64,000 nt of DNA from an uncultured bacterium (GTDB taxonomy: Bacteria; Krumholzibacteriota; Krumholzibacteriia; JACNKJ01). This document shows positions 37,050 to 44,864 of this stretch, one piece after another. The DNA lies in assembly GCA_963695095.1 (NCBI GenBank), contig CAVOFT010000001.1:928001-992000 (forward strand). The letters are read 5' to 3'. The translations under genes were made by a program, and so were the position numbers. The notes beneath the pieces are model-generated. The model was not told where the DNA came from. It ran no database searches and worked only from the letters and a program-made list of their open reading frames with translations. Positions within the stretch are counted from its first letter, which is position 1. Each line of letters begins with the position of its first letter.

Positions 37050-40000
37050 AAGGCTCGCTCGCCGCGCTGCTGGGCGCGCTCGTCCTGGCAGGCGCGGCCG
37101 GCGCCGCCGGGCAGGAGCCGCGCGCGCGGGTCTTCAACTGGCGCGGCGACGACCTGGAGCACCAGCGCCGCGGCGAGGTGAGCATCACCCAGCTCACCAA
37201 CTTCTGGTGCCAGTCGGACAGCCTGGTGGTCACCGCCGAGCTCGCCGAGCGGCGCGTGGACGCGGCGGCGGCGACCGACGAGTTCTCCCTGCGCGGCAAC
37301 GTGGTGGCCGTCGAAGGCGCCACCCGCATCGTCGGCGAGACCGGCCACTACGACCGCCACCGCGACGTCGCCACCGTGAGCGGCGCCGTCACGATCAACG
37401 ACGCCGCCACGGTGATCCACTGCGCGGAGGCCGTCTACGAACGCGGCGCGCAGCTCATCCACCTGGTGGGCGATGTCGACATCGCCCAGGGGGAGAGCCG
37501 CCTCCGGGCCCAGCGGGTGATCTACCACCGCGCCACCGGCTTCGCCGAGGCCTTCGACGATGTGGAGCTCTCCGAGCAGGGCGGCGACACCGTTCTGCGC
37601 GGCCAGCACGGCAGCTACGACCGCGAGCGCGACCAGGCGGAGATGGACGCCTCTCCCCACCTGCTGCGCGCGAGCGCGGGCGACACCGTCCAGGTGACCG
37701 CCGCCCGCATGCGCCAGCTGCGCGCCGACAGCCTGGCCATCGCCGTGGGCGACGTGCGCTACCTGCGTGGCCCCACGGAGGCCCTATGCGACTCCGCGCT
37801 CTTCTACCAGGCGGAGGATCGCCTGCTGCTCTTCGGCGAGCCGCGCGTGCTGCGCAGCGGCAGCACCCTGGCGGGCGACACGCTGGAGCTCTTCTTCGCC
37901 GGCGGCGAGATCCAGCGCATGAACATCAATGGCCGGGCGCGCTTCCGCGACCGGCCCGCCGATACCCGCGTCTTCCCCGGCCAGCAGAGCGAAATCCGGG
38001 GCGATCGCTTCCGCATCCACTTCCGAAGCGGCGAGATCAGCAGCGTCGAAGTGCAGGGCTCACCCAGCAGCACCTACATTCCGCCGCTGGGCGCCGACGG
38101 GCGCGCCGCGATCAACGAGGCCGCAGGCGACTCCATGCTCCTGCGCTTCAGCGCCGACGATCTGGACGAGGTGCGCATCTTCGGCAGTGCGTCCGGACGC
38201 TACCGCTACCTCGACGACTGGCCGGCCCGCTGGGCCGTGGCGGACAGCGCCGCGCCAGCATCGCGGACAGCGCCGCCGCCAGCATCGCCGACAGCGCCGC
38301 CGCCAGCATCGCCGACAGCGCCGGCGCTGCCGCGCGCTTCGCGACGCTAGCGGCCGTGATCGAGTACAAGGCCGACGACATCATCTACCAGGCCGTGCAG
38401 GAGCGCGCCTACCTGGAAGGCGAGGCGGAGGTGGCCAGCCCCGACTTCACCCTGCAAGCGCGGGCCATTCGCTTCGATGCGCGCGATGACTTCCTCGACG
38501 CCCGCGGCGAGCCCGTGCTCATCGACGAGGGCGATCAGCTCTACGGCAGCCTGATGGAGTACGCGATCGACGAGAAGGTCGGCCTCGTGCACAGTGGCAC
38601 GACGCGCTACGGCGAGGGCTTCTACGCTGGCGAACGCCTGAAGAAGAAGCCCGACGGCCGTGTGAACGCCTACGCCTGCACCTACACCACCTGCGATCTC
38701 GCGGAGCCGCACTTCCACTTCAAGGTCGATCGCATGACGATCCAGACTCGCGACAAGATCGTCGGCGCGCCCGTTCGCTTCTACCTGGGGGACATCCCCC
38801 TCTTCTACCTGCCCTACCTGTTCAACGACCTCAAGCGCGGCCGGCGCTCGGGCTTCCTGCAGCCGGATTTCGAGTTCGGCATCACCCTGAGCGAGAACAA
38901 GCCGCAGCGCTTCGTGCGCGACCTCGGCTACTACTGGGCCGCCAGCGACTACTACGACCTCACCCTGCGCGGCAACTTCGAGGAGCGGCGGTCGCTGTTC
39001 GGCACCCTGGGCATGCGCTACTACCAGCGCTATTTCCTGGGCGGCTCGGTCAACAGCAACCTCAGCTACGACGCGCGCCGCGATCTGGTCAGCGACGCCT
39101 TCTCCTGGGGCCTGCACGGCACCCACAACCAGGAGCTGGACGAGCGGACGCGGCTGAACGCCAATATCGACTTCGTCAGCAGCGAGGCCCTGCGCGACAT
39201 CGACAACTACACGGTCGAGCAGACCATCAACCAGCGGCTCACCTCCAATGCCGCGCTGAGCCGCAAGTGGGACAACCTCTCGCTGAACAGCAGCTACAAG
39301 CGCACGCAGATTCTCAATCAAGAGGACGACGATCCGGCGACGGACAATCTCCTGGTCGAGGAGACGACGCCGGTGTCGCTGAGCGCGACGCCGCTGCCGC
39401 TGTTGCCCGGCCTGAGCGGGCGCGACGGCCTGCGCGGAGCGCTGGCGGGGCTCAAGCTGACGCCGCGGCTGTCCTACACGCGCAACAGCAAGCGCTACGA
39501 GACGCGCCGGCTGGTCACCGAGTCGGCGTCCACGGGCAGCAGCCTCGGCTTCAGCTTCAAGGTCGGCTTGTTCACGCTGAGGCCGGGCTTGAGCGCCTCG
39601 GAGAACTGGAATCGCAGCAGCGCGCCGGTGACGGTGACGGGACTGGCGCCCTTCGGCAAGCTGACGGGGTTCGCCGACGGCGTCAGTCCGCTCTCGCCGG
39701 CCGGCGAGAGCGCTGCGCTGGCGACGGTCACCGGCACCGCCGATCGGGACGGCGAATTCAGCCACCGCTGGACGGCGAGCACGGCCATCTCGACCAAGTT
39801 CTTCGGGCTCTTCTACCCGCAGATCGGCCGGCTGACCGGAATCCGCCACACGGTGTCGCCCGCCGCGACCTGGAACTATGCGGAGTCGCGCGGCAAGACC
39901 TTCGCCGTCGGCCGCAGCATCAGCCTGTCGCTCGACAACAGCCTCGATCTCAAGCTGGGCGAAGGGGAGACGGTCGAGCGCAAGACCGGAGTCGCCAACT

Positions 40001-40701
40001 GGAGCCTGAGCACCGGCTACGACCTGACCAAGCAGTCCACCGAGCAGCCCTGGAGCGCGCTGAGCAGCAGCTGGCAACTCAATCCCCTGCCCAACTTCAG
40101 CCTGGCGCTGCGCCAATCCTACGATCTCAACCACGGGGAGAAGCTCGGCACCACGCTCTCGGGCAATGTCTCCTTCAACGGCAGCTTCAGCTACGGCGGC
40201 ATCGAGCGCCGCGAGCAGATGCGCAACGTGGTGCTCCAGCGCGAGGGCGAGACGGCAGCCCCGAGCGAGCCGGCCGCCGCCGAGCCGGCGGGCTTCGATC
40301 CCAACGCGCCCCTGCACGAGGACGGCCCCCCGCTGCCGCGGCAGGAGCCGGGCGCCGCCGCCGCCGGCCCGGGCGGCAGCCAGCGCTGGAACCTGTCCAG
40401 CAGCTTCACGTTGAACCGCACTCGTAGCAGTTCGCCCAGCCCCACGGTCAATCTGGGTGGCCGGGTGGATCTTACGGACAATTGGAGCCTGGACTATCGA
40501 ACCAGCTTGAATCTCGCGGATGGGGTGCTCGGCACGCAGTCGATCCACCTGACGCGCAATCTGCACTGCTGGGAAGCCTCATTCTCGCGACTTGTCTTCC
40601 AGGGTAGGGAGCAGTACTATTTCCGCATCTACTTGAAGGCACATCCTGACGATATCAAGCTCGAATCGGGCGATCGCGGCGCGGGTTACGGAGGCTTCTA
40701 G
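37046..40701 (+). CDS. lptD: LPS assembly protein: long LptA/OstA-like N-terminal region joined to an LptD-type barrel (frameshift near 38252)
   Basis: Signal peptide, repeated L.G.V.I jellyroll strands, YTTCDL..PHFHF, RRSGFL.P, LGYYWA, RNLHCWE C-terminus. Confidence 0.75.
38240..38322 (+). repeat. 24-bp tandem repeat x3.5 encoding ADSAAASI
   Basis: GC(G/C)GACAGCGCCGCCGCCAGCATC at 38263 and 38287, a partial copy at 38311, and a first copy (38240) of only 23 bp. Confidence 0.9.
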
Positions 40702-40738: not shown

Positions 40739-41032
40739 ATGAACAAGGCTGAACTCATCGATCGCCTGGCTGCGGCCAGCGGTCTCGCCGTGAAGGACGC
40801 GCGGAGCGCCGTGGACCACCTGTTCGCCACGGATCCCCGCAACGGCGTCATTGCCAATGCCCTTGCCGGTGGCGAGAAGGTGCAGATCACCGGCTTCGGC
40901 ACCTTCGAACTGCGCCAGCGCAAGGCGCGCACCGGGCGCAACCCACGCACGGGCGAAGAAATCGCCATTGCCGCGAGCCGAGCGCCGGCGTTCTCGGCCG
41001 GCAAGAGCTTCAAGGAACGCTACAACGACTGA
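40739..41032 (+). CDS. hup: HU family DNA-binding protein
   Basis: MNKAELI, GEKVQITGFGTF, RKARTGRNPRTGE, PAFSAGK. Confidence 0.95.
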   Translation: MNKAELIDRLAAASGLAVKDARSAVDHLFATDPRNGVIANALAGGEKVQITGFGTFELRQRKARTGRNPRTGEEIAIAASRAPAFSAGKSFKERYND

Positions 41033-41077
41033 CCCGATGCGCGGGTTGGAGATGCAAGCAAGGAGAGTGGAGTGACC

Positions 41078-42430
41078 ATGCATAGCCTGCGAAGCCGCCT
41101 CAGCGGGGGCGGACTTGTGCTGCTAGCCATCCTCAGTGCCGGCGGGCTGCGCGCGGCGCTTGCCGACGTGGACGTGGTGATCGGCTACGAGACGCGCGCC
41201 ATCGGCGAACTCGACGAGTGTGGCTGAAAGAGCAAGCAGAAAGGCGGCGCTGCCCGGCGGGCGGCGCTTATCGAGACCCTGCGTGAAGAGAACGAGCACG
41301 TGCTGATCCTCAGCGGGGGCGACAACATCTCCAATCAAGCGGATCGACAGTGGGAGCGGCAGTCGCGCCTGCTGATGGATCTCCTGGGCGACATGGGCCT
41401 CGACGCGACGGCCGTGCAGGCCCAGGACCTGCTGCTGGGCCTGGACGTCCTGCAGGGTTTCGGCGCGCAGGAAGGCTACGCGCTGCTCTGTGGCAACCTC
41501 ATGGACGGCAGCGGCAAGGCGGTGTTTCCGAGCTACCGGATCTTCGAACTCGGCGGCAAGAAACTCGGCGTGCTGGCGGTGACGGACCCTCGGCTTCAGC
41601 ACGGGGTGCAGAAGATGCCGGCCGGGCTCACCTTCGCCGATCCCGGGCCGGTGATGGAGGCCGGCGTGCGCGCGCTGCGCGAGCATGAGGGCTGCGCGGC
41701 CGTTGTGCTGCTCTACGGCGGCCGGCGCGAGCAGGCGCTCGAGGCCTGCAAGACCTTGACTGGCGTCGACCTGATCTTCTTCGGCAACTCGACGATCAGC
41801 CAGCGGGTGCCGACCGAGACGGAGTCGGGCGTGCCCGTCTACACGGCGGGAAATCGGGGCAAGGACTTCGGGGAGATCCAGCTGACGCTGAAGGATGATG
41901 GGTCGGTGGCGCTGTCACCGATGCAGATCCACGAGCTGGACAAGAACTACCCGGAGCAGCCGGAGGTGGCGGCGCGCGTGGCGGCCCTGAAGGCGGAGCT
42001 GGATGCGGAGAAGCAGCGAACGCAGCTGATCGAGCAGCTGGCGCGGCAGACCAGCGAGACGGAGGTGACGGAGGCCTTTCTCGGCTCGGAGACCTGCAAG
42101 CGCTGCCACGAGGCGGAGTACACGTCGTTCATGGCCACCGCGCACGCCCAGGCGCTGGCGAGCCTGGAGCACGACTTCCAGGACAACAACCCGGACTGCG
42201 TGAGCTGCCATGTGACGGGCTGGCAGCAGCCGGGAGGCTACGGACTGGATGCGGTGAACCGGAACAAGCTGAAGGGCGTCCAGTGCGAGGCCTGCCACGG
42301 CTATGGAACGACGCACGCGCGGAACCAGCCGGCAGCGAGCGAACCGGCCGCGATGTGCCTGCGTTGCCATGATGCGGCCAACAGCCCCGAGTTCAACTAC
42401 AAGCGCTACTGGGAGAAGATCAAGCACTAG
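41078..42430 (+). CDS. Exported UshA-like selenoprotein fused to a tetraheme c554-type cytochrome (TGA 41225-41227 read as Sec)
   Basis: Signal peptide plus GELDECG-TGA-KSKQKGGAARRA in frame with ORF 41300..42430. Four CXXCH motifs (CKRCH, CVSCH, CEACH, CLRCH). Hairpin after the TGA. Confidence 0.85.
41246..41268 (+). promoter_or_regulatory. Candidate bacterial SECIS hairpin
   Basis: GGCGCTGCCC-GGC-GGGCGGCGCT. The G-led apical loop starts 28 nt after the UGA. Confidence 0.65.
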
Positions 42431-42441
42431 GGGAGAGGGCC

Positions 42442-43137
42442 GTGCGCGCTGTCTGCGGGGTCCTGACGGCCTTGCTGTTCCTCGGTCTCATCGATGCCCG
42501 GCAGAGCGAGGCGAGCGGCCCGCTCCCGCCGGGCTTCTTCATGGAGTACCGCGTCGAGTCCTTCAGCGAAGGCCGCCGCAGCGAGGAGCGCTTTCGCCTC
42601 GTCGTGCGGGAGGCCCTCGACGCCGATCGCCGCTTGCTCGAACTTAGCCTGGATAGCGGCAGCGCCTACCGCGCCGTCTATCAGGCAGGTGGGGGGGGGC
42701 AGGGCCCCTTTGCCGTGGAGCGCTTCGAACGCGTCGAGGGCCTGCAGGACGGCCAGTGGCAGCCGCTGGTCCCGGCGGAGATCGAGCTGCTCACCCTCCT
42801 GGCCGACATGCAGGACCGCATCGAGCGCGGCCACGCCGAGGCGGACAGCAGCATCTCGGTGGGCGGTCGCGCCTGGCCTGCCCAGCGCTACAGCCTGACC
42901 GACAGCAGCGCCACCGTCCAGCGCAGCGCCAGCGTGACGCTCACCCGGCAAGTGCTGGCCCGTGGCACGGCCTGGGTCGCCGCCGATCTCCCCTTCGGCG
43001 GCTGGATTCGCTTCGAGGAGGAGCGGCAAGCGCGCAAGATCTCGGAGCTCGGCGGTCGCCGCTTCGTCGGCGAGCTGGAGACCAGCCGCGAGCTCTGGAC
43101 CCTCGTGGCGCTGAGTCCGGCTGCTCTCAACAAGTAA
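42442..43137 (+). CDS. Hypothetical exported protein
   Basis: 231 aa, GGAGAGG RBS, signal-peptide-like N-terminus, 11 bp after the cytochrome gene. Confidence 0.6.
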   Translation: MRAVCGVLTALLFLGLIDARQSEASGPLPPGFFMEYRVESFSEGRRSEERFRLVVREALDADRRLLELSLDSGSAYRAVYQAGGGGQGPFAVERFERVEGLQDGQWQPLVPAEIELLTLLADMQDRIERGHAEADSSISVGGRAWPAQRYSLTDSSATVQRSASVTLTRQVLARGTAWVAADLPFGGWIRFEEERQARKISELGGRRFVGELETSRELWTLVALSPAALNK

Positions 43138-43399: not shown

Positions 43400-43612
43400 A
43401 TGAGTAATACGAATCCGGGCGTTGCCACGTCGACCTTTTTGGAACGTGAGCTGGATTCAAACAAGAAATACGTCAAGTTCCACAAGCTGCTTGCCAAGGC
43501 CGAAAAGGAGGGCCGGATCGACGGACGCTATGCCTGTCCGGTATGTGGCATGCGCTTCATGGTCTGGGATGAAGCGGACACCTGCTGCAAGCAACTGCCG
43601 GGCATGAAGTAG
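43400..43612 (+). CDS. Small Cys-containing protein (CPVC...CC)
   Basis: 70 aa ORF with purine-rich RBS and a zinc-finger-like C-terminus. Confidence 0.65.
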   Translation: MSNTNPGVATSTFLERELDSNKKYVKFHKLLAKAEKEGRIDGRYACPVCGMRFMVWDEADTCCKQLPGMK

Positions 43613-43639: not shown

Positions 43640-44020
43640 ATGAAGCAGTACTGCTCCGTTTGCAAGGACCACCTCGACATGGCGGTGGTGGAAGAGGGCG
43701 GAGAGGACGAGGTTACCTGGCTGAAGTGTCCCCGCTGCAAGGGAATCCTGCCTCACATGAAGCTCGATGGCGAGGAGGAACCCGTTCCGGTCCCCGCCGC
43801 GGCGGCCTTCACGCTCGAGGGCATCGATACCACGAGCGTGCACGAGTACGAGCCGTCGCGGTTCTACGAAGTGGGCGATGTCATCTACCACCGGTCGTGG
43901 AATGACTACGGCCGTGTCGTGGAGAAGCTGATCCTGCCCGGGGATCGCCATGCGATCAGAGTGCAGTTCCTCAATCAGGGCGACGTCAACCTGCTCGAAG
44001 ATGTCAGTCACGGAGGCTGA
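43640..44020 (+). CDS. Zinc-ribbon protein with a C-terminal Tudor-like domain
   Basis: CSVC...CPRC, then YEVGDVIYH..W...GRVV...IRVQF...G...L. Confidence 0.7.
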   Translation: MKQYCSVCKDHLDMAVVEEGGEDEVTWLKCPRCKGILPHMKLDGEEEPVPVPAAAAFTLEGIDTTSVHEYEPSRFYEVGDVIYHRSWNDYGRVVEKLILPGDRHAIRVQFLNQGDVNLLEDVSHGG

Positions 44021-44864
44021 GCGGCGTTCTTGCTGGCGCCTCTCAGCCTCCGTTCTGCTTCTGCTGGCCGCCGTTCCGGCGGGCGCCGGCTTTCTCCACG
44101 GTGAGGGTGTCCTGGACAGTCAGGCCGCGCTGCCCGCAGGGCAGCGCCGACTGGAATTCGGCTCCACCTACTATGGCGCCGGGCCCTGGGCGGGCCACCG
44201 GCATCTGCTGCGCGTGGCCGGCAGCCGCGGCGAGCTGGTCCAGTGGAGCCTCTCCCTGCCCTGGCTCTATTCCTCTCTCGGCAACGGCGGCCGCTCCGGC
44301 CGCGACAATCTGCTCACGGGCGCCACTCTGCGCATGGCCGCCGGCGAGCGAGGCCGCCTGCGGCTGGGAGGGGAGTTCTGGCTACCCCTGGCCTCGGCAT
44401 CGCTCGCTCCGCTGGCGGAGCGCCGCGCCTTCCTGCGCCTGGCTCTGCTCGGGGAGCTGACGGCCGCGGGCGGCCTCGAGGCGGGGCTCAGTTACTGCCG
44501 CGAGCTGCGGGGCATCGGTCCGGAGGCGGAGGGTCCCTGGCCGGCGTCCCTGGACCTTGACCTGCGCCTGGGTCGGCGTCCGACGTCGGGCCTTCGCGCC
44601 TGCCTGCTCGGAGGAAGCGCCTGGCAGCCCGAGGGCGAACTCGGGATGGGCTGGCTGGGGGCAGGCCTGGCTTACGCCTGGGACGGCCAGTGGCTCGCCG
44701 AATTGACGGGCGCCGCGTATCTCGGCGCCGCAGACGAGCCCACCCGTGCGGACTACCGGGTGCGCCTGGGCCTGCGCTGGGATGCCGAGCTTCCCAGCGC
44801 CACGCCTGCCCGGGGCGGCGCGGCCGCCGGCGAGGCGGCGGCGCCCAGCCCTAGTGGCTGCTGA
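44001..44864 (+). CDS. Hypothetical exported protein, possible outer-membrane beta-barrel
   Basis: Signal peptide ending VPAGA, alternating hydrophobic strands, RLGLRW-like last strand. Confidence 0.5.
   Translation: MSVTEAERRSCWRLSASVLLLLAAVPAGAGFLHGEGVLDSQAALPAGQRRLEFGSTYYGAGPWAGHRHLLRVAGSRGELVQWSLSLPWLYSSLGNGGRSGRDNLLTGATLRMAAGERGRLRLGGEFWLPLASASLAPLAERRAFLRLALLGELTAAGGLEAGLSYCRELRGIGPEAEGPWPASLDLDLRLGRRPTSGLRACLLGGSAWQPEGELGMGWLGAGLAYAWDGQWLAELTGAAYLGAADEPTRADYRVRLGLRWDAELPSATPARGGAAAGEAAAPSPSGC

Follow-up and report, generated by a model that had tools for sequence, protein, structure and literature searches.

The window analyzed here is a stretch of 64,000 nucleotides (nt) from an uncultured bacterium of the Krumholzibacteriota (contig CAVOFT010000001.1, positions 928,001 to 992,000 of the forward strand). 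It contains a gene whose product is very probably a real selenoprotein of the UshA-like CxU family. Upstream of this gene lie a gene for an LptD-like protein and a gene for a HU-type DNA-binding protein. On its other side it is followed by a gene for an exported protein of 231 amino acids (aa), two small conserved open reading frames (ORFs) and, further downstream, genes for an M16 peptidase and a sigma factor. The host genome comprises 3.64 Mb in 2 contigs and is 93.5% complete. The coordinates of the features discussed below are collected in Table 1.

The in-frame TGA codon and its hairpin

A single reading frame extends from the ATG at 41078 to the stop codon at 42428-42430 and encodes 450 residues when its sole in-frame TGA, codon 50 at 41225-41227, is read as selenocysteine (Sec). 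In the read-through translation this codon falls within the motif C48-G49-U50. The ORF list divides this common frame into a 51-codon ORF (41072..41227) and a 376-codon ORF with a GTG start (41300..42430), and the public gene calls for the locus also begin at GTG 41300, 3' of the TGA. The first-pass annotation, which was made from the sequence of the window, had placed four CXXCH motifs in the downstream ORF and had proposed a ribosome-binding site, an upstream peptide and a single TGA at codon 50 in a CxU position. All of these are present in the sequence, and AAGGAG-like sites also precede the ATG in close orthologs.

Based on the comparative evidence, TGA 41225 is almost certainly read as selenocysteine. 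The genome encodes the machinery for Sec incorporation, with selB (336.8 bits), selA (429.8), selD (342.4) and tRNA-Sec (71.9) all above the curated cut-offs, and the set of selA, selB, selC and selD genes expected of a bacterium that makes selenoproteins is complete. A six-frame search of 208 genomes of the phylum, with the read-through protein as the query, recovered an ortholog in 200 of them and in 125/125 of those of high quality. Because 145 of the 150 phylum matches listed carry exactly one TGA, a sequencing error at 41225, which would have undone the first-pass proposal, is excluded. The remaining five comprise two matches cut by contig ends and three full-length Cys forms (G192, G177 and G199). 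In 29 of the 30 phylum loci that were fetched, TG[TC]-GGN-TGA leads into an open frame that is 393-404 codons long and contains four CXXCH motifs, and the thirtieth ends at a contig edge.

Relatives outside the phylum were collected by a pattern scan of one genome per species, which found 365 loci, and the best 80 were kept. The motif is carried by 72 of these best 80, with TGA in 15 and Cys codons in 57 at a common column, and no third residue is found at the codon-50 column in these 72 loci. When 11 database homologs were aligned at the motif, seven possessed C-G-C and one C-N-C, two were without the region, and a distant one, P0099, possessed S-G-P. Hence codon 50 of the homologs, which had been named as a point to check, is Cys or TGA in every motif-bearing locus outside the phylum, and P0099 is an exception among the database homologs. 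An in-frame UGA that aligns with Cys in homologs is also the pattern by which bacterial selenoproteins are recognized. Cys or Sec forms occur in records labelled Planctomycetota, Acidobacteriota, Thermodesulfobacteriota, Verrucomicrobiota and Myxococcota, among others.

The segment upstream of the TGA is conserved as well. The N-terminus, MHSLRSRLSGGGLVLLAILSAGGLRAALA followed by DV, resembles a Sec-type signal peptide when judged by eye, with a basic n-region, the hydrophobic core LVLLAILSAGGL and then ALA before DV. In a crude hydrophobicity test, 36/39 orthologs possessed a 10-aa window with a mean Kyte-Doolittle value of at least 1.8 before the CG-U motif, and orthologs keep the upstream frame together with its signal peptide and the first beta strand. 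This result meets the concern that homologs might lack the upstream segment. Export via this segment is expected because a protein with c-type hemes has to be exported and there is no signal peptide other than the one 5' of the TGA.

The alternative is that TGA 41225 is a true stop, a sequencing error or a pseudogene lesion, so that the ORF from 41300 would encode a separate product that is unexported or non-functional. This is very unlikely and is close to refuted already. A stop at this position would have to recur as a single TGA at the matching codon in 145/150 of the listed matches across the phylum, in a column where 57 loci elsewhere have Cys, and downstream of a frame, signal peptide and first beta strand that are conserved. 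It would also separate c-type hemes, which require export, from the sole signal peptide, and this in a genome with the full Sec machinery. The agreement among gene callers does favor a stop, since, among the 32 closest database proteins, 31 begin only 3' of the TGA (328-384 aa, 73-86% coverage). These include the window's own entry, P0002, with 376 aa, together with 30 further close proteins, and P0006, a Cys form, is the only full-length protein among the 32. The unremarkable energy of the hairpin in a single sequence, described below, likewise speaks for a stop. If the codon is recoded, the same 31/32 mean that the family is systematically called as truncated, signal-less 'cytochromes' in automatic annotation, and therefore that selenoproteins and heme proteins are undercounted in the inventories made for these uncultured lineages.

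A 10-bp stem begins 18 nt past the TGA, and its loop lies 28 nt past the TGA. The first-pass annotation had described a 10-bp hairpin with a G-led loop starting 28 nt downstream; the hairpin is present, but 28 nt is the distance to the loop and not to the stem. A 10-bp stem with a GGN loop 28 nt past the UGA agrees with the stem-loop of a selenocysteine insertion sequence (SECIS) that is expected shortly 3' of the UGA in bacterial selenoproteins. In this DNA of 70% G+C, the hairpin is no more stable than shuffled sequences, 96/200 of which fold equally well (z = -0.01). Because the energy of the single sequence equals that of the shuffles, one sequence proves nothing about the hairpin, and the case rests on comparison.

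For this comparison, the TGA plus 75 nt were aligned for 29 orthologs, which represent 28 distinct sequences. Among the distinct orthologs, 89.3% of the cells pair in the proposed helix, and 40-58% do so after a shift of the 3' partner by 1-3 columns. Two-sided changes were found in 4/10 pairs, among them GC/CG at columns 24-42, CG/GC/GU/UA at 27-39 and CG/UA at 30-36, and the observed covariation score was reached by 0/500 shuffles. The loop is GGN across the covarying orthologs, and pair 25-41 is mostly unpaired (19/28 sequences). The hairpin stretch also codes for a conserved peptide, GG-x-ARRA. As a control for the peptide, the same ten column pairs were counted in Cys forms, which keep GG-x-ARRA. 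Three Cys forms from the phylum possess 5, 7 and 6 of the 10 pairs. Outside the phylum, the 15 TGA forms have a mean of 8.1/10 pairs, with 13 at 8 or more, and the 57 Cys forms have a mean of 4.9, with 2 at 8 or more, where the column-wise counts of some Cys forms are biased low by differences in spacing. Overall, the hairpin appears to be specific to TGA forms and to go with TGA rather than with Cys. Besides the spacing bias and the ordinary folding energy, this interpretation has against it two TGA forms, L114 and L125, which lack the hairpin at the homologous columns (5 and 2 pairs, respectively). Rfam gave no match in 41000-41400 at E <= 1, which would be expected of a database without models for bacterial SECIS elements.

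The selD gene of this genome, which lies outside the window (G000:C1:69142-70107; locus L010), itself carries one in-frame TGA, in the motif ...SAGGU SAK.... Past this TGA there is a hairpin whose GGA triloop is closed by C-G, and in this single comparison its apex is similar to that of the hairpin at 41246-41268. As judged from its gene, SelD is a second selenoprotein of the genome with a similar SECIS apex.

Table 1. Features of the selenoprotein locus, in positions of the window
Feature	Position	Strand	Basis
HU-type DNA-binding protein gene	40739..41032	+	Pfam Bac_DNA_binding, E 9.2e-29; upstream in 23/29 phylum loci
Ribosome-binding region (AAGGAG 41060-41065, GGAG 41069-41072), 5' of ATG 41078	41060..41072	+	Direct sequence reading
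Whole predicted selenoprotein gene, 450 aa, stop included	41078..42430	+	Read-through with one TGA; NF041198 matches flank the TGA
Putative signal peptide, residues 1-29, likely cleavage after A-L-A	41078..41164	+	Reading by eye
5'-nucleotidase-type N-domain (metallophosphatase fold) without metal ligands, residues 30-294	41165..41959	+	AF2, Foldseek, profile
Cys48-Gly49-Sec50 motif (TGT GGC TGA), TGA at 41225-41227	41219..41227	+	Conservation, TGA/Cys interchange
SECIS-type hairpin: stem 41246-41255 with 41259-41268, loop GGC 41256-41258	41246..41268	+	Fold, covariation, association with TGA forms
Long linker helix, residues 295-326	41960..42055	+	DSSP on the AF2 model; 5'-nucleotidase alignments end at about residue 324
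Cytochrome c554-like tetraheme domain, residues 327-450	42056..42427	+	Pfam, PDB profile, CXXCH conservation
CXXCH motifs	42095-42109, 42197-42211, 42284-42298, 42356-42370	+	Direct reading
Conserved downstream gene, exported 231-aa protein, LolA/RseB-like open beta-barrel, possible partner	42442..43137	+	Synteny, AF2, VIA-align

Domain architecture and family membership

The fold of the protein was predicted with AlphaFold (AF2) from 92 sequences (pLDDT 90.6, pTM 0.83). Foldseek aligned the model up to about residue 325 with E. coli UshA (1ush, E 7e-20, root-mean-square deviation (rmsd) 2.7 over 330 columns) and its N-domain with SoxB (2wdc, E 6e-19) and CD73 (E about 1e-20). A profile compared with PDB sequences matched 5'-nucleotidases with E 4.5e-33 over profile positions 45-324 and SoxB with E 3.5e-22, and the N-domain matched TIGR04486 (SoxB) with E 5.9e-13. 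The C-terminal domain matched Pfam Cytochrome_C554 (PF13435) with 59.7 bits against a cut-off of 20.8, the only Pfam domain seen in the selenoprotein, and the c554 structure 1bvb in the PDB with E 1.3e-27 over profile positions 340-457. Profiles and predicted fold are thus in agreement with the 450-aa architecture of a nucleotidase fold joined to a c554-type domain that had been claimed at the outset.

The N-domain does not retain the metal site of the nucleotidases. No Metallophos (PF00149) domain was found in the selenoprotein by Pfam at E <= 0.01, nor did Pfam find a C-terminal 5'-nucleotidase substrate-binding domain. In the BLAST alignment with the genome's canonical paralog, LDAGD pairs with LSGGD and GNHELD with QAQDLL, and the correspondence of DxH with ETR is by position only. 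These results, and the lack of a Pfam Metallophos match, bear out the first-pass view that the metallophosphatase motifs are lost. From the metal-ligand set DxH, GD, GNH(E/D), H and GHxH, only the Asp of GD is left in the query copy. The canonical paralog, an exported 5'-nucleotidase of 497 aa encoded outside the window on the - strand (L023:838-2331; G000:C1:1789012-1789803), keeps DLH, DAGD, GNHELD and GGHSH intact and provides an internal comparison for the degenerate domain.

In a family alignment of 104 sequences from 113 loci, the N-domain positions that are at least 80% kept are G43, C48, G49, C/U50, G56, G57, R60, R61, G81, N140 and G261, where the selection pattern forced C48, C/U50, G56, G57 and R/K60 and left G49, G43, G81 and N140 free. 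The C-G-C/U motif occurs in all 104 sequences, with C48 and C/U50 demanded by the pattern. No metal-ligand position is at least 80% kept in the 104 sequences. In the N-domain of this alignment, no reactive side chains are conserved other than those of Cys48 and Sec50 together with R60, R61 and N140. The protein was also considered as a nucleotidase or a SoxB-type hydrolase, and both activities were rejected because its metal ligands are lost. With the C-terminal domain replaced as well, the protein is therefore neither a nucleotidase nor a thiosulfohydrolase.

In the heme domain, the four CXXCH motifs, H356 and H413 are invariant (100%) in the 104 sequences and the C-terminal H450 is kept in 90%, which gives three conserved distal histidines for four hemes. 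A database protein of 630 aa, P0083, matches the heme domain only (43% identity over 22% of the query) and, according to the precomputed Pfam list, carries Redoxin, Thioredoxin_8 and AhpC-TSA domains; in this protein a thioredoxin fold is fused to the heme module.

The best family match of the whole protein is NF041198 (UshA_like_PCGU, 'UshA-like (seleno)protein', 519 positions), with 248.2 bits (E 1.5e-73). When the genome was scanned, the match appeared in two pieces, one of 114.1 bits over profile positions 18-269, with one TGA, and one of 123.9 bits over positions 353-519. The second piece corresponds to residues 283-442, the heme region, so that the multiheme part of the profile is represented in the protein. 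The C-G-U/C motif is represented as well, with C48-G49-U50 aligned with the CGC of Cys homologs. What weighs against membership is that 248.2 bits is below the curated cut-off of 275 and that profile positions 270-352 are unmatched; the PGAP equivalog rule would not name the protein, its score being under the cut-off. As far as the profile comparison goes, the product of 41078..42430 is a shorter member of NF041198 just below the threshold. Because the cytochrome tail is inside the curated profile, the fusion of a nucleotidase-like domain with a cytochrome is not new.

The first-pass statement that UshA-like proteins with CGC or CGU motifs form a predicted selenoprotein family is upheld by the NF041198 match and by tables in the literature. 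A table of the 2008 GOS survey places 'UshA-like (COG0737), CxU' among the predicted selenoprotein families and counts 76 Sec and 92 Cys sequences for it, and the family is named in the discussion of the survey too (PMC2398784). The family is also entered in a review table (PMC9312934), and a further review table cites NF041198 together with a second family, NF049981, for UshA-like proteins (PMC13188914). The entries in these three sources give neither a function nor a heme domain for the UshA-like CxU family (PMC2398784, PMC9312934, PMC13188914). A literature search found no paper that joins nucleotidase, multiheme and selenocysteine. The gene is a clear and well-supported example from a predicted selenoprotein family that was already known, and not a new kind of system. 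What this analysis adds is the distribution across a phylum, the covariation of the SECIS with its Cys-form control, the survival of CGU alone in the N-domain, the conserved LolA/RseB-like neighbor, and the leads from thioredoxin-fold proteins and from DsbB/VKOR that are described below.

Conserved neighbors and disulfide generators

The surroundings of the gene are conserved in the phylum, where tblastn found LptD upstream in 24/29 loci and HU upstream in 23/29. HU was rejected as a functional partner because it is a cytoplasmic DNA-binding protein, although it is a conserved neighbor. The LptD-like gene of the window (37207-40701, + strand) matches Pfam LptD_2 with E 1.8e-36 over residues 518-892. 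Its listed GTG start gives an implausible Arg-rich N-terminus, and the true start is probably further downstream.

The gene for the 231-aa exported protein, which the first-pass annotation had suggested as a possible partner, lies directly 3' on the same strand in 25/29 phylum loci and in 8/80 other loci, at distances of -11 to +76 nt. These counts come from iterated jackhmmer on a small local set of downstream ORFs, and the E-values refer to a tiny database. Of the 80 other loci, these eight are the nearest to the query, and three carry the label Krumholzibacteriia. With single-pass tblastn, the protein was found only within the same taxonomic family (11/29 loci). The suggestion of a partner therefore stands as far as conserved neighborhood in the phylum is concerned, but the alignment of the 231-aa protein contains no conserved Cys or His.

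The AF2 model of this protein (pLDDT 90.8) resembles the open barrels of RseB, MucB, LolA and CT021. The scores are middling: VIA-align gave a Z of 9.5 for RseB (rmsd 3.7 over 140 residues) and 7-8 for LolA-type entries, and Foldseek gave E ~1e-4 with TM 0.2-0.4. In the ESM Atlas, only unnamed clusters and a CT021 lead at 0.92 were found. No Pfam or NCBIfam family was assigned to the 231-aa protein or to the ORFs at 43400-43612, 43640-44020 and 43950-44864. The first two of these ORFs (+ strand, 70 and 126 aa) are conserved downstream in 11 loci of the same taxonomic family, with up to 91% and 86% identity, respectively.

In other phyla, the context was examined at 80 loci through the two longest open stretches per 1.5-kb flank, which amounted to 266 stretches. 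In 8/72 motif-bearing loci, the next gene 3' on the same strand encodes an exported thioredoxin-fold protein with an intact CXXC. The products are DsbA-like in L076, L078 and L088, combine thioredoxin (Trx) with HEAT in L085, L096, L126 and L131, and are Trx in L136; in a ninth locus, L092, a HEAT protein has lost the CXXC. L078 and L119 each have ResB as a neighbor, and L088 has a CcdA-type gene. In addition, the Cys-form homolog is immediately preceded on its own strand by a gene for a DUF1573 (immunoglobulin-like) protein in 13/72 loci (L081, L086, L087, L094, L095, L098, L100, L105, L117, L122, L129, L133 and L137), in records labelled Planctomycetota and Armatimonadota, and DUF4159 is found upstream in 4 further loci.

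The DsbB, VKOR and DSBA profiles gave no match in the genome, which is 93.5% complete. A survey of 51 phylum genomes at least 90% complete found DsbB in 0 and VKOR in 1.

Proposed function and comparison with known systems

The explanation that best accommodates these observations as a whole, with a probability of roughly 0.55, is that the locus encodes one exported selenoprotein of 450 aa, in which the TGA would be recoded by SelB and tRNA-Sec under the guidance of the hairpin. The mature protein would then possess an N-domain without the two-metal site, a linker helix, and a c554-like four-heme domain in the place of the substrate-binding domain of nucleotidases. Cys48-Gly49-Sec50 is the likely reactive centre because nothing else reactive in the N-domain is conserved. 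Its Cys/Sec pair may cycle between a selenosulfide and the selenol/thiol state and may exchange its two electrons singly with the heme chain, which would couple the thiol/disulfide chemistry of the periplasm to the pool of cytochrome c. Taken by itself, the proposal of a Cys/Sec redox couple wired to hemes is about evenly balanced. In the favored direction, electrons would pass from the thiols of exported proteins, or from a thioredoxin-fold carrier, to CGU, then to the hemes and finally to the respiratory chain, and the protein would act as a heme-wired sulfhydryl oxidase.

The direction of thiol oxidation is itself doubtful. It is favored because CXC disulfides are strained, because thioredoxin-fold neighbors occur in three architectures, because a Redoxin domain has been fused to the heme module, and because the usual disulfide generators are absent from the lineage. 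CXC disulfides are both strained and oxidizing, and sulfhydryl oxidases such as Erv2p (CGC) and Mia40 (CPC) use them as shuttles. All four grounds are weak or indirect, and several observations weigh against them. The thioredoxin-fold neighbors are found in only 8/72 loci, which fall into three related groups and do not represent eight independent events, and none of these loci is in this window or phylum. The 231-aa neighbor, with its lipid-carrier-like fold and no conserved Cys, is a misfit for a thiol relay, and the DSBA profile found no DsbA-type substrate carrier in the genome. Many anaerobes are without DsbB and VKOR anyway, so their absence here gives weak support.

Two other functions were considered for the Cys/Sec pair. 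The selenoprotein may act on inorganic sulfur or selenium (polysulfide, thiosulfate, tetrathionate, selenite, or elemental S or Se) as a respiratory or detoxifying reductase or oxidase, with the Sec/Cys pair attacking the substrate and the hemes delivering or removing electrons. This is unlikely. The matches of the N-domain to SoxB (TIGR04486, E 5.9e-13; 2wdc by Foldseek, E 6e-19; profile, E 3.5e-22) point toward it, but SoxB chemistry needs a two-manganese site, which is lost in the selenoprotein. Also in its favor, the conserved R60 and R61 beside the motif could bind an anion, and other multiheme selenoproteins, ExtKL and an octaheme tetrathionate reductase family, are listed in a review table (PMC13188914). 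The LolA/RseB-like barrel of the neighbor is of a kind that carries hydrophobic ligands and could, speculatively, handle S8 or Se0. Against it, no neighbor of the sox, psr, phs or ttr type was found among the flanks of the 80 loci or in the window. A housekeeping context with LptD and HU, and a presence in nearly every genome of the phylum, fit a core function better than a niche respiration.

It is decidedly unlikely that Cys48 and Sec50 are ligands, which either bind a metal that replaces the two-metal centre or cap the open site of one heme and so form a new catalytic metal site. Position is in favor of this, since the motif falls in the loop that follows strand 1, the place of the metal site in nucleotidases, but there are no other conserved metal-binding residues around it. 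The three conserved distal histidines (H356, H413 and H450) for four hemes would leave one heme without a His partner, heme 2 of c554 is likewise five-coordinate, and Cys-ligated c hemes are known in SoxAX and TsdA. However, since c554 itself has one open heme, no extra ligand is needed. Moreover, the interchange of Cys and Sec at a C-x-C motif, beside thioredoxin-fold neighbors, is more typical of redox pairs.

Returning to the redox pair wired to hemes, its wider meaning lies in three observations: CGU alone is conserved, thioredoxin-fold neighbors recur, and DsbB and VKOR were not found. Together these suggest a flow of electrons between thiols and c-type hemes which, if real, would be a new route for periplasmic disulfide formation, in a protein that is near-universal in one candidate phylum (200/208 genomes). 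The protein could even represent a third type of machine for generating disulfides. It would then be a sulfhydryl oxidase, soluble in the periplasm, that stands in for DsbB or VKOR in lineages without either, such as this phylum, where DsbB was found in 0/51 genomes and VKOR in 1/51 and the selenoprotein in 125/125 genomes of high quality. The strained Cys-Gly-Sec selenosulfide would take up the electrons and a four-heme wire would pass them to the respiratory cytochrome pool. This extension is quite unlikely. Were it true, the position of the gene beside LptD and the LolA/RseB-like gene would tie the selenoprotein to outer-membrane assembly.

Among the known systems, NF041198 is the closest. 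Its members share with the selenoprotein a C-G-U/C motif near the N-terminus of a 5'-nucleotidase-like domain, the interchange of Sec and Cys, and a C-terminal multiheme region. In contrast, the protein described here has 450 aa against the 519 positions of the profile, and in the query copy the Cys is preceded by Glu instead of Pro, most orthologs having EPCGU. Additionally, the gene is near-universal in this phylum and has a conserved LolA/RseB-like neighbor of its own. The likeness to UshA, CD73 and SoxB is confined to the fold of the N-domain and the long linker helix. Unlike these enzymes, the selenoprotein has lost DxH, GNHE and GHxH and has no Metallophos domain, and their C-terminal substrate-binding domain is replaced by the tetraheme domain. 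With cytochrome c554 of Nitrosomonas europaea (1bvb, PF13435), it shares four CXXCH motifs, a c554-type arrangement as judged by profile, and three distal His for four hemes. While c554 is a free-standing carrier, the module in the selenoprotein is fused behind the Cys/Sec domain and ends in a conserved His450. Finally, Erv2p and Mia40, like DsbB and VKOR, offer an analogy in which a redox motif of the C-x-C type is coupled to a built-in electron sink. These proteins have no relation to the selenoprotein in sequence or fold. Moreover, its predicted sink would be four c hemes rather than flavin adenine dinucleotide or quinone, and one of its two cysteines would be replaced by Sec.

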